A stretch of 64,000 nucleotides of DNA from Tricharina praecox (taxonomy: Eukaryota): contig NW_026250407.1 in assembly GCF_024521635.1 (NCBI RefSeq), forward strand, positions 248,001 through 312,000. The letters are read 5' to 3'. Under the pieces are notes generated by a model. The model worked only from the letters and a program-made list of their open reading frames with translations, did not search any database and had not been told where the DNA came from. The position numbers and the translations under genes were made by a program. Shown here piece after piece: positions 98-3,541 of this stretch (its first letter is position 1; each line of letters starts with the position of its first letter).

Positions 98-1680
98 TTA
101 ACGGAGGCCAATGACGCTCTGTAGTAATGTCAGTATGGAGTAGGAAAGACGGTGTAGGGAAGGGTAGGCAGACCATTTCGAGAGTCCAGACACGACGGAT
201 CCACACTTTCAGCTTTCCATCCACGCCGTCGACGCCCTCGAGCTCGAGGCCTTCCCACCAGCATCGACGCTAAAACAAAAACATCAGCATATGGCAGCAC
301 GGCAAAAAGGTTATGGTACATACTGCGGGCTTCCTCCAAAACAGCAGCAGCTTCTGCGCCATTCCAACCACGTTGCTGTCATTCGAGTCCTTGGAGTCGG
401 TTCTCAACCTGGCCAGAGCCAGACTACAGATCACGGCCTTGTTCGGCTCTCCGGCGCGGTGTCCCCAGGTATCGTCGACGTTGAATCCTCTGCCATAGTT
501 AGCAAGACAAGATCCCCCGGCAGCTGTTACGTGCCATGTAGAATGCGAGTAGATCTAACCCAGCGGTCAACATCTCGATGAGATGTTGCTCAGTAGTGCC
601 GGTATCATCGGTCCTCCTCAACCCCGAAAAGATACCATCCTGCTTGAGCAGGACTCTCCCGGCAGCGCGCTTGACCTCCATCATTTCCTGGCGCGAGATG
701 TCGCGCTTCGGCGGTATCGCGTAAAAATCCAGGTCTTCCCGCAGGACAATGATACCAGCACGGTCCTGCAGGACATTGGCAGGGCTCGTTTGCAATTGGT
801 TCACCTCCTCGTCCTCGTCCGCCGAAGCCACCGTGATCGTCGACGAGACTTTCCGGAAGAAGTCGAGCATAAATTTCAGGCAATTCGGATCGAACTGTGG
901 CGGGTGTCAGCGATTGGCGCCATTGCGTTATGTAGGACAAAGGCAACAACAACATACGTCGACTATGTAGATTCCATCGTCATGATACGAGTTCTGCTGT
1001 CCGTCGGGGAATAGACCGTTGGGGAACAGCGACAACAACACAAACTCGGGCAGCGTCAGGAGTTCGTCGCGCGACAGAATGAACGGGGTACCTCTGTCAC
1101 AAACACACGCACGCGACTTGATAAGCGAGGGGTCTTTTCGAGCCAGAATGGAAGGAAAGCGCGAGAAAAGCTACCGTAGGTCCAAGGTCAAGTTCTCTTC
1201 TCCAGTGCCTGGTGCATCTATGAAATCACAATGTCAGTTGGGATCTGCCCGAACAAAGGATGAAAAAAAGAACGCCGGCGCGCATATATCTATCGGGCCC
1301 GTACCTGCCAACGTGTTGAGCGGTGGCCCTCCTTGCTGCACCTGCGTAATGATCGACCCGGAACCTCCTGCGGCTGCCATAGCGAAAACGAATGAATCGA
1401 GCGGTGAGAGTGCTTCCGTGTAAGGTGGCGGTGGCTGCTCAGGATCCTGTTTGCTGTACGATGGCGAGGGGACGAGAGATGAAGGACCGACGACGGCGAC
1501 GAGACTCCCCGGTTGCTGCTGTTTCTGCGATTCCGCGGACTTGGACGAAGGTGATTCTGGCGGTGATGGGGGTGTGCTAGCAGACTCGGCGATTACTTCG
1601 GCGTAGGAAGACGGCTGCTGCGTGGAGGGAGCGTCCTCGGCGGTCGAGAAGTGCGACTGTAGGTGTGTAGAGGACGACAC
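98..1680 (-). CDS. WHI2: Whi2-like growth/stress regulator (BTB/POZ-like fold), 7 exons; first in-frame ATG at 1380, frame open to a GTG at 1680
   Basis: Manual splicing: exons 1680(or 1380)-1305, 1208-1175, 1093-958, 894-560, 489-324, 269-174, 118-98, all GT..AG. Protein: MAAAGGSGSIITQVQQGG..LDLRGT.F.LSRDELLTLPEFVLLSLFPNG..FDPNCLKFMLDFF..IIVLREDLDFY..EQHLIEML..WGHRAGEPNKAVICSL..QKLLLFWRKPARRCWW..KVWIRRVWTLEMSVIGLR*, which I recognise as fungal Whi2. Confidence 0.9.
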
Positions 1681-2527
1681 GTCGGGGAAGGCAAGGAGTG
1701 TTCTGCGGTGGTGAGCAATGTAGGAGGAGGCGAAGGAGCGAGGGTGGATTCGGAGTAGCCGTCAACGTGCATGCAGTCCAACGACAGCTGATCTGGCGGC
1801 GAGCGGAGGGCGGGCGGGCGGGAGGGCTGGGGTGTATAGTACCGAGTACGGACTTTGGGGTATCCAGATGTCGCTGGGCTGGGGCTCGATGAGGAGGAGG
1901 TTGTGTCTAGTGGTCGAGGGTTTACTTTAGGGGCGGATTGGGGTAATTGGGGTGTGTGATAGCCGCCGAGTTGAAGTTATCCTAAGCACCAACCAACCAG
2001 CATGGGCAACTGGTAGGAGTCCCAAGGAGGGCCAACGACACACGTCCAGCAACCGTCAGCGCGAATCACGACTGGCGGCCAAGTTCTTGGTCAGAGGGGC
2101 CTGGCCAATTATTTACTCCGTGCGAAGTCACCCAGAATCATCATGGCTGCGAAGAACTCGGTGATGAACAACTTGAATGGAGCTTCGCGGAGCTATGCTA
2201 GGCTGCTACATAGGCCACCACGTAAATTTTCTGGCCGACTCCACTAACAAATCGCTACCAACATCCAAATCCGCAGATGGCGGCGGCGGACAGACAGGTC
2301 TACTAGGTAGAATAGGTAGGTAGATATTCCCGCCTACAAGAGACAGAGTTGAAATAAGATTCCCCAACGCCAGATGAAACATACAAAGAAAAGACACGCC
2401 TGTAATCTAAGATCTACTTCTTATGCCATCTCGAGAAAAGCAAAGAAACGAAACGAAAGAAAAAGAAAAAAACCCGGAACCGCTTCCCAATAAACCGTAC
2501 GCAAACCAGAAGAATTTGAGAAAACCA

Positions 2528-3415
2528 TTATTCCGCAGCCTTCGCCTCTACCATGTCATTCCCCTCAACGACGACCTGATGATCCCTCAACTTCCGCATC
2601 AGGGCCAAAAAATTACTGTTCTGAAACTTGGCGGACGTATTTTCCTGAACAGAATCCAGCAACTGTCCCGCAGTCCTAGCCAGATCGTCGCCCTCCCTCT
2701 GCAACTGCTCCTTCTCCTGGACCTTGTCCGCAACCTCTACGGGCCGTTCAAATGCTAACAACTGCTCCTCCTCGGCAACAAACTCTCTCTCGGCATCGGC
2801 AAATGCTCGCTCGAACGCGCTCTCGTCATACTGAAACTCGCTCTGCTGGTGCTGCTGCTGGACTTGCGACACCCCCATATCCATCGAAGGGGAGTATGTA
2901 CCGAATCCCGAGTAACCGCTCGCCATCGTCGTCGCGGGAGCCAGCCCCTCCTGCTGCATCAGCGGCGCAGCCTGCTCCCTCTGCTGCAGCCTCTGCGTGA
3001 ACTCCAGTCCCCACTGCGGCTGCTGCTGCTGTTGTATCGGAAACCGTTGTACGGGAGCAGCGCCGATGTCGAGTCGCTGGAAGTCCGTCGCCCACGCGGG
3101 TGCCTGTGCTTGTGACTGCTGGAACAGCTGTGGCTGCTGCGGCGCAAAGAACGGGTCTGCGCTCACGCCGCCCGCGGACGAGAAGGCGTCGAACTCATTA
3201 TCGCCCCACGCTGGGTTCTGGGCGCTTCTGAAGCCCTGATTGTACTCTGTCAGCGCGGGGACTGGAGGGGGGCTGGGGGCGGTGGTGAGTGACAGTACCT
3301 GTGATGAACCTTGGTGGCTCTGGCCGCGGAAGCGGTCTTGCTGGTGTGTGCGGTCGGCGGTGGTATGTTTCTGGAGCGACGAGAGCGCGTTCGAGGGTCC
3401 ACAGAGAGCTGCCAT
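2528..3415 (-). CDS. PEX20: Peroxin Pex20 (PTS2 co-receptor)
   Basis: N-terminal conserved Cys motif (MAALCGPSNAL), WxxxF motifs (WATDF, WGLEF) and a C-terminal Pex7-binding-type motif (DDLARTAGQLLDSV..KFQNSNFLALMRKLRD). Probable in-frame intron 3298-3236 (GTACTG..GCTGAC..TCAG). Confidence 0.88.
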   Translation of the reverse strand: MAALCGPSNALSSLQKHTTADRTHQQDRFRGQSHQGSSQVLSLTTAPSPPPVPALTEYNQGFRSAQNPAWGDNEFDAFSSAGGVSADPFFAPQQPQLFQQSQAQAPAWATDFQRLDIGAAPVQRFPIQQQQQPQWGLEFTQRLQQREQAAPLMQQEGLAPATTMASGYSGFGTYSPSMDMGVSQVQQQHQQSEFQYDESAFERAFADAEREFVAEEEQLLAFERPVEVADKVQEKEQLQREGDDLARTAGQLLDSVQENTSAKFQNSNFLALMRKLRDHQVVVEGNDMVEAKAAE

Positions 3416-3541
3416 GGTTCTGTTTCTGACGGTGTGGTGGTGGTGGTGGCGGTGGTGGAAGAGAGTCGCGTGGAAGAGGGATGGGATGGATGAGTGGGAT
3501 ATCTATCGGGGCCAAAGTACATAAGCAGCCAGGACCTCGGC

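Follow-up and report, generated by a model that had tools for sequence, protein, structure and literature searches.

A conserved near-cognate codon upstream of the AUG of WHI2 as candidate start of a long, PY-motif-bearing Whi2 isoform in Pezizomycotina

The WHI2 locus and its transcript

Whi2 is a BTB/KCTD-like regulator. Its gene lies at the beginning of a stretch of 64,000 nucleotides from Tricharina praecox (assembly GCF_024521635.1, contig NW_026250407.1, positions 248,001 to 312,000 of the forward strand), which is referred to here as the window and numbered from its first letter. This WHI2 gene is encoded on the minus strand, has seven exons, and its reading frame stays open for 127 codons upstream of the first in-frame ATG (1380-1378), up to a TGA at 1764-1762, without a single further in-frame ATG. 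A preliminary description of this DNA, made from the letters alone, had reported this open frame and had proposed that it encodes an N-terminal extension with a PY motif which is translated from a GUG codon. The open frame is as described, and the evidence presented below makes a start at the GUG likely.

The core of the encoded protein matches proteins named Whi2 or WHI2-like. With the exon 499-906 as query, 827 protein matches were obtained at E ≤ 1e-20 in a database search, and several of them carry the names 'general stress response protein Whi2' or 'WHI2-like protein P4H10.16c'. The spliced frame is free of internal stops and predicts a long form of 390 and a short form of 290 amino acids. 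The nearest relative, P0001, is a protein of 387 amino acids called on a Logan contig of 1,712 nt, in whose sequence the introns of the window are absent; 340 residues of the spliced long protein are identical to P0001, and 256 are shared with a protein of Sphaerosporella brunnea. The nearest named relatives are Pyronemataceae, namely S. brunnea (87% on one exon of 135 residues), Pyronema and Wilcoxina (80%). The window gene is an orthologue of WHI2, from a Pyronemataceae-like fungus of the order Pezizales. A Pfam scan of the exon translations, taken one at a time, gave nothing at E ≤ 0.1.

The structure of the messenger RNA was read directly from transcript contigs of public sequencing runs, of which X1 and X2 come from two studies and X3 and X4 from metatranscriptomes. 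The X1 and X2 contigs skip six GT..AG introns and are therefore derived from RNA; no letter in them differs from the window. Record 1 of X1 spans 1305-1819 and record 5 of X2 spans 1305-1965, both without joint or gap, and the RNA contigs read G at position 1680. Since these contigs are colinear with the genome, the leader of the abundant messenger RNA is unspliced and contains the extension, the GTG, the TGA at 1764 and the ATG at 1772, with 585 nt or more ahead of the first in-frame AUG. Identical pieces were also present in X3 (1382-1605) and X4 (spliced exons up to 1425). An upstream exon with an ATG, the use of a splice site at 1703 and an assembly error are excluded in the X1 and X2 contigs. 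The preliminary description had considered a transcription start downstream of about 1450, but the transcripts extend upstream to 1819 (X1) and 1965 (X2). The contigs cannot place the 5' ends of the transcripts; 23 loose letters follow position 1965 in X2, which we take to be sequencing adapter, and they hint at a fragment end only.

The features of the locus, all on the minus strand, are as follows. L001 denotes the closest of the metagenomic loci described in the next section.

98..1380, minus strand: WHI2 coding region from the first AUG, seven exons, six joints in transcript contigs
1380-1305, 1217-1175, 1093-958, 894-560, 489-324, 269-174 and 118-98, minus strand: the WHI2 exons, with the stop TAA at 100-98
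1218..1304, minus strand: WHI2 intron 1, 87 nt, GT..AG; joint 1217/1305 in X1, X2 and X4, ends checked
1378..1380, minus strand: AUG of the short isoform (290 amino acids), context gctATGg, the start in most gene models of relatives
1381..1680, minus strand: N-terminal extension of 100 codons, S/P/Q-rich and predicted to be disordered; open frame, no ATG in any frame
1420..1434, minus strand: codons of PPPPY (PPxY or PY motif), from the translation
1678..1680, minus strand: GTG, proposed near-cognate start of long Whi2, in frame, 100 codons before the ATG at 1380
1672..1684, minus strand: island of 13 nt, CGACGTGTCGTCC, around the GTG, identical in L001
1762..1764, minus strand: in-frame TGA closing the WHI2 frame upstream, from the sequence
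1593..1772, minus strand: out-of-frame upstream open reading frame (uORF), 59 codons plus stop (1595-1593), starting 92 nt before the GTG and ending 88 nt after it
1681..1965, minus strand: unspliced part of the 5' leader preceding the GTG, up to the limit of an X2 transcript contig

The GTG at 1680 stands in the context cccgacGTGt, with T at +4 and with G at -3, the purine that had been reported before. The translation of the extension ends ...DPEQPPPPYTEALSPLDSFVFA-M, also written ...SPSYSKQDPEQPPPPYTEALSPLDSFVFA-M; the S/P/Q-rich end given in the preliminary description matches this translation, but its sequence omitted the final A. Between 2200 and 1378, ATGs occur at 2144, 2141, 2003 and 1772, all of them out of the WHI2 frame, and at 1380. 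The ATG at 1772, the sole one in any frame between 2003 and 1380, opens the uORF that was already recognized earlier and has a weak context, with T at -3 and C at +4. Over the 300 nt from the GTG at 1680 to the ATG at 1380 there is no ATG in any frame, and no AUG of this transcript leads into the extension.

An open frame alone means little at this place because in the C-rich leader each of the three minus-strand frames runs for over 100 codons without a stop (1577-1906, 1593-1976 and 1234-1761). The open frame by itself is not above chance; it is its conservation that exceeds chance. Two candidate elements of the leader were rejected. The string GCTCAC..CGCAG at 1703..1720 (minus strand), put forward before as a 3' splice site with a putative branch point, is present in the sequence but unused, with no joint upstream of exon 1 in 1305-1965 (X2) or in 1305-1819 (X1). 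Structure-assisted initiation was discarded as well, since 91-nt folds after the GTG were no better than those of shuffled sequences, with z values of 0.32 for the window and -0.85 for L001.

Conservation of the extension and of its first codon

With the translated extension and exon 1 as query, 75 longer proteins were matched, and the PY block is present in all 75 wherever the aligned part covers it. Sequences were inspected for 33 of them, from Pezizomycetes, Orbiliomycetes, Eurotiomycetes, Lecanoromycetes, Dothideomycetes and Sordariomycetes, and in these the conserved block reads EPPP(P/A)Y(T/S)E-x-SPL-x-SF-x-Y/F-x-MAAAGG. Five aligned Pezizales sequences do not vary in the residues PPPPYTE, P, S, F and M of this block. 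In addition, metagenome contigs scanned with an alignment of Pezizales sequences yielded 80 WHI2 loci, all of which have PPP(P/A)Y. Conservation over 1381-1680 is present, and the statement in the preliminary description that the PPPY..SPL..F segment is conserved in homologs has proved right.

The locus closest to the window is L001 (87% over residues 98-152), which in exon 1 has the same residues as the protein of Pyronema domesticum. Its WHI2 frame is bounded upstream by a TGA that lies six codons ahead of the GTG; the main ATG follows 89 codons past the GTG, and no ATG lies between them, neither in frame nor in any other frame. Thirteen nucleotides around the GTG, the island listed above, are shared exactly by the window and L001, and both flanks have diverged; the island was detected by anchoring on the GTG, as a global alignment of the two leaders succeeded from about column 545 only, over exon 1 and the final ~180 nt of the extension. 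Where this alignment is good, 14 codon changes were read, of which 11 are synonymous, and within the block PSPSYSKQDPE..SPLDSF nearly all changes are so. Over 79 codons of the extension, the ratio of nonsynonymous to synonymous substitution rates (dN/dS) is 0.24, with an excess of third-position changes. The 27 codons that precede the GTG in the window have no similarity to L001. L001, too, carries an out-of-frame ATG whose context is weak. It opens a uORF of 60 codons in the same relative frame as the one from ATG 1772, starting 68 nt before the GTG of L001 and ending 115 nt after it; the uORF peptides of the two loci are unrelated and not conserved.

In 77 of the 80 loci the WHI2 frame holds no ATG from the stop upstream, or in eight of them from the contig edge, down to the conserved Met; three near-identical loci (L002, L003 and L006) have an in-frame ATG about 100 codons before the motif. 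Together with the window the loci yield 73 distinct extensions, of which 65 (64 loci and the window) are usable and eight are truncated by the contig. The 65 extensions are 89-215 codons long (median 148). The MAFFT alignment was too gappy at the N-termini for defining a start, and the start column was set by residue motifs. In translations marked for NTG codons, the first conserved residue motif always holds such a codon, as in aitLsasrdssdgss, tVdsdtssvhttpsl, akLdperis, pttaLs and tkLf, and in dVss of the window and L001. The counts were as follows.

Codon at the N-terminal edge of conservation (n=65): TTG 46, GTG 16, CTG 2, TTC 1
Base at -3 (n=65): A 51, G 14; purine in 65/65
Base at +4 (n=65): T 50, G 13, C 2
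TTG among the other Leu codons in the extensions: 22/553
GTG among the other Val codons in the extensions: 46/409
ATG in any frame from the near-cognate start to the main ATG (65 loci): observed 7, expected 267 from shuffles, ratio 0.03
ATG in any frame in the 300 nt upstream: observed 168, expected 218, ratio 0.77
ATG in any frame in the 300 nt downstream: observed 346, expected 277, ratio 1.25

The codon at the start site is NTG in 64 of the 65 loci and never ATG. When the sequences are aligned on this site, information content is highest at the codon itself and at -3, -4 and -8 and declines beyond -12; the purine at -3, the T at +4 and the C at +5 of the island in the window agree with the consensus of the 65 aligned contexts. 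An in-frame stop lies nine or fewer codons upstream of the site in 21/65, and the consensus has no AG just upstream of it. Single-linkage clustering at 60% identity gave 17 clusters, and the start codon is found in every one of them. The extension is under coding constraint, with dN/dS values of 0.07-0.36 in 23 of 23 pairs, which were chosen by hand as near relatives. The main Met is conserved in all loci and is followed by G at +4 in 63/65, and from the near-cognate start to the main AUG there is no ATG at all in 58 of the 65. From these comparisons, the near-cognate start design, usually with UUG, appears to be the ancestral WHI2 arrangement of Pezizomycotina.

Open reading frames called on short Logan contigs start with M exactly where the genomic relatives have GTG or TTG in five clear cases among the 19 inspected (P0001, P0051, P0072, P0100 and P0137). 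In P0150, P0161, P0166 and P0183 a start here or at a second GTG is plausible, and the others begin elsewhere or are not judgeable. P0001, with 76% identity to the window over the aligned N-terminal part, begins MSSSTDPPPHFSTDED..., which is aligned to V(GTG)SSSTHLQSHFSTAED of the window, M-SSST thus facing V-SSST. Both P0001 and P0081, on Logan contigs of 1.4-1.7 kb, begin with M-S-S at the position aligned to the GTG at 1680.

Several further observations were made on the extensions and leaders of the loci. CTG, TTG and GTG are all rare inside the 65 extensions (101 of about 9,800 codons), which could reflect avoidance of further near-cognate starts or just a preference for C at third positions. 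A second in-frame GTG lies about 11 codons after the TTG (rdssdgssVsdk) in L002, L044, L051, L057, L063, L080 and other Lecanoromycete- or Eurotiomycete-like loci; the Logan frame P0161 begins MSDKISF at this second GTG, where a second near-cognate start is possible. Very short AUG uORFs that end about 20-50 nt before the near-cognate start were seen in L028, L031, L035-L038, L041, L047, L053 and L075. A uORF runs across the start in the window, L001, L044, L051, L077 and L079, and the nearest upstream ATG opens a reading frame that continues past the start in only 6/65. Many lineages carry a second PPxY-type motif (SPPPQYP, SPPPGYP or SPPPRYP) together with PPPFSSLY in the middle of the extension (L005, L007-L010, L017, L020-L023, L025-L027, L061, L070-L072 and others), and in many Sordariomycete- and Leotiomycete-like loci this second PPxY is SPPPQYP; neither element is present in the window or L001.

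The gene upstream of WHI2 (2528-3502, minus strand) is PEX18/PEX21-like (match to Pfam PF25098 at E 2e-4, under the curated cut-off). A PEX18/21-like neighbour precedes WHI2 in L001 as well (about 1672-1740 of L001), and PF25098 is fused to WHI2 in the Onygenales gene models P0045 and P0059; on this basis the gene pair appears to be syntenic across classes. Fusions of this kind are not restricted to this neighbour. Pfam domains of unrelated enzymes, e.g. DPP3, enoyl reductase, G-patch and PEX18/21, are found in 16 of the 75 proteins matched by the extension, and many WHI2 models in the database are chimeras with neighbouring dipeptidyl peptidase 3, ABC-F, enoyl reductase, G-patch, adenosylhomocysteinase or tRNA methyltransferase genes, an outcome to be expected of gene predictors that search for ATG. 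P0039, labelled Carpinus fangiana (a tree), is a fungal-type WHI2 fused to adenosylhomocysteinase and is probably fungal DNA in a plant assembly. At the other end of the gene, the WHI2 transcript contigs (X1 record 1 and X2 record 5) continue for ~530 letters past the first base of the window, so that either the 3' untranslated region of WHI2 is longer than 600 nt or the contig is joined to a neighbouring transcript.

A possible dual start and the alternatives to it

We consider it likely that a conserved near-cognate start codon, GUG in the window and mostly UUG elsewhere, gives rise to a long Whi2 with a PY motif and that leaky scanning past this codon yields the short isoform from the AUG. 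Such a pair of isoforms had been suggested in the preliminary description, and it is now supported by the transcript, by purifying selection, by the conserved GTG context and by a TTG/GTG at the equivalent position in 17/17 clusters, with a purine at -3 and a tract free of ATG as far as the AUG. Scanning ribosomes would first meet the weak, out-of-frame AUG at 1772 and then the GUG at 1680 in its conserved context. A fraction of them would initiate at the GUG, decode it as Met and make the isoform of 390 amino acids, whose 100-residue, disordered N-terminal extension would end in PPPPY directly before the conserved Met. The remaining ribosomes would scan through the 300 AUG-free nucleotides and start at the AUG at 1380, giving the isoform of 290 amino acids without a PY motif. 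The ATG-free tract is expected under scanning because ribosomes not captured by the weak start have to travel on to the next AUG, and since this AUG follows directly after the PY block, the short form would lack exactly that motif. Ribosomes that translate the uORF would bypass the GUG and, on reinitiation, could feed the short form only.

PPxY motifs bind WW domains of Nedd4/Rsp5 ligases (PMC9282857, PMC8509885; here and in the following, papers are cited for those parts of their text that were available). The PPxY core of the window, PPPPY at 1434-1420, would lie in an accessible segment, a region of low confidence in a structure prediction made for P0001 with 27 homologues. This model is poor overall, with a mean predicted local distance difference test score (pLDDT) of 53 and a predicted template modelling score (pTM) of 0.32; block means of pLDDT are 30-48 over residues 1-128, the PPxY region is below 50, and a strand-helix core of low overall confidence begins at residue 131. 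According to the model, residues 1-128 are not confidently folded, and a BTB-like core would follow from near residue 131. Conservation in the extension resides in short motifs: PPxY, to which other classes add PPPFSSLY, ETKAALPxDTK and a second PPxY. The PY motif of Whi2 would most likely dock WW domains, namely those of the Nedd4-type ubiquitin ligase Rsp5/HulA. The two isoforms would then differ in ubiquitin-dependent stability, location or adaptor function.

Several points weigh against a start at the GUG with leaky scanning. GUG and UUG are weak start codons, the base at +4 of the GTG at 1680 is T and not G, no stable hairpin is found downstream of it, and the overlapping uORF would lower its use. 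The first M of P0001 is either a true ATG or the rendering of a GTG by the gene caller. Some annotated homologues start with an M a few codons before the motif (P0047 with MTVDS, P0054, P0008 and P0010), so that an AUG close by may be in use in some species. In a single locus, L079, the start site is occupied by TTC. The start column was picked by eye after the NTG codons had been highlighted, which introduces some circularity; this is tempered by the rarity of NTG, which accounts for just 101 of the roughly 9,800 other codons of the extensions. The 80 loci are mutually related and stem from metagenome contigs without RNA evidence, in which 5' introns are possible. Finally, the transcript contigs are blind to 5' ends, and the short form may have a shorter transcript of its own.

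Such a transcript would be driven by a second promoter, located within the extension or downstream of it, and both isoforms would then exist without leaky scanning. Alternative promoters are a common source of N-terminal proteoforms, and the contigs are compatible with one. However, the ATG-free tract (7 against 267, with ratios of 0.77 and 1.25 in the flanking controls) is expected only if ribosomes must scan through it, and we regard a second promoter as unlikely.

It is distinctly unlikely that only the short isoform is made and that 1381-1680 is an untranslated leader, open by chance or as the relic of an AUG-bearing ancestor. All three frames are open here, among the 13 nearest relatives retrieved, 10 have their annotated or called start at the MAAAGG-type Met or just after it, and WHI-2 of Neurospora crassa is described as a protein of 297 amino acids (PMC6987382). 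Short gene models are, however, the expected output of predictors that accept ATG only. Moreover, an untranslated leader does not account for the dN/dS of 0.24 and the third-position excess against L001, nor for the conserved context of the GTG, the absence of ATG in any frame over 300 nt and the presence of the same design in 17/17 clusters.

The extension could also be translated from a different near-cognate codon. The frame is open from 1761 and contains ATC at 1749, ATT at 1719, ACG at 1623 and ATC at 1593, and cpc-1 uses several near-cognate codons (PMC5487733). Yet ATC 1749 and ATT 1719 have a pyrimidine at -3, and the 27 codons before the GTG are unlike those of L001, where the frame is closed by a TGA six codons before its GTG. 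The conserved island of nucleotides sits on the GTG itself, and P0001 and P0081 start at the aligned position. We therefore consider initiation at any of the other four codons very unlikely.

An even less probable route to a long form is a start at the AUG at 1772 followed by a -1 (or +2) frameshift into the WHI2 frame between 1762 and 1595. This AUG is the only one of the leader, its reading frame overlaps the start of the extension, the equivalent in L001 is in the same relative frame, and frameshifting was raised as a formal alternative for cpc-1 by Ivanov et al. (PMC5487733). But neither the uORF of the window nor that of L001 has a heptamer of the type X XXY YYZ, the conserved island of 13 nt is not a slippery sequence, the peptides of the two uORFs show no conservation, and most loci have no overlapping uORF at all; frameshifting is thus highly improbable. 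An upstream ATG exon spliced in frame onto the extension, e.g. at CGCAG 1703, is to be given hardly any credence and is largely refuted for the abundant transcript: it could invoke the branch-point-like and AG string at 1720-1703 and the long, M-initiated N-termini of some annotated homologues, but the contigs are colinear over 1305-1819 (X1) and 1305-1965 (X2) while splicing six other introns, a splice from GT 1766 to 1703 would not restore the frame, and a stop lies nine or fewer codons before the conserved TTG/GTG in 21/65 loci, with no upstream AG in the consensus.

Returning to the near-cognate start with leaky scanning, it is tempting to go one step further and to regard WHI2 of all Pezizomycotina as an ancient dual-start gene, in which the weak UUG or GUG is kept by selection, the arm with one or two PY motifs makes the long form an adaptor or substrate of Rsp5/HulA, and the AUG-free tract delivers ribosomes to the start of a bare BTB form. 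The isoform ratio would then track the state of the translation machinery, because the use of near-cognate codons depends on the stringency of eIF1/eIF5 and on eIF2 status, and would couple this state to a regulator of TORC1 and cell fusion. This wider picture is possible, but we hold it with considerable doubt.

Relation to known systems

Whi2 restrains TORC1 at low amino acids, and several filamentous fungi require it for cell fusion, development or the formation of infection structures (PMC6126876, PMC6987382, PMC8295519). The same orthologous gene encodes WHI-2 of N. crassa (NCU10518, 297 amino acids, the short form; PMC6987382) and MoWhi2 of M. oryzae (MGG_11241; PMC8295519), both with BTB domains and Psr1/CSP-6 as partner; in their available parts, these two papers do not mention an upstream extension or a second isoform. 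Phosphosites at S103-S111 have been reported for WHI2 of A. nidulans, which would fit the numbering of the short form. In a literature search that left most subscription journals and supplements outside, we found no publication on a non-AUG start or N-terminal extension of WHI2 and no paper that links Whi2 with PPxY; in the text available, Whi2, Rsp5 and the PY motif co-occur only as different proteins. This kind of arrangement is already known, with cpc-1 as the nearest precedent, and the WHI2 case itself is new to the literature searched.

If the dual start holds, current WHI2 gene models are wrong in two ways, some being short forms and others chimeras with the upstream neighbour, and constructs made from the annotated ATG are devoid of a conserved regulatory part, an arm of 90-215 residues with a ligase-docking motif. 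WHI2 would then be a clean, subphylum-wide natural case of start-codon stringency setting proteoform ratios in fungi. If WHI2 is in addition an ancient dual-start gene, work on the short form, such as N. crassa WHI-2 with its 297 amino acids, has covered only half of the output of the gene.

Pairs of a long non-AUG form and a short AUG form are known from yeast GRS1 and ALA1, in which the extension is a mitochondrial presequence, unlike the disordered, PY-bearing arm of WHI2. As in c-Myc with its CUG and AUG starts (10.64898/2026.06.01.729300), a weak upstream start would give the long and the AUG the short proteoform, with a ratio open to start-codon stringency. The PPxY core in a disordered segment resembles the arrestin-related adaptors of Rsp5/Nedd4 (PMC9282857, PMC8509885). 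Human KCTD11 (PMC6566181) belongs to the BTB/KCTD proteins, the group with which Whi2 is compared, and its annotated AUG form is likewise N-terminally short, a longer form being reported to start at an upstream AUU. However, the extension of KCTD11 has 39 amino acids and completes the BTB fold, whereas that of WHI2 has 89-215, is predicted to be disordered, carries the PY motif and precedes the BTB domain; there is no sequence relationship between the two.

The closest parallel is cpc-1 of N. crassa, the GCN4 homologue (Ivanov et al. 2017, PMC5487733), in a paper whose main text, as far as available, does not mention WHI2. Both genes have a Pezizomycotina-wide extension with near-cognate starts, in WHI2 proposed ones, in good context, a bias towards synonymous substitutions in the main frame and an interplay with a uORF that overlaps the extension. 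cpc-1 encodes a different protein, however, and uses several near-cognate codons in a frame that is open to the transcription start, whereas in WHI2 a single TTG/GTG site dominates, often just a few codons after a stop, and a tract without AUG follows it.

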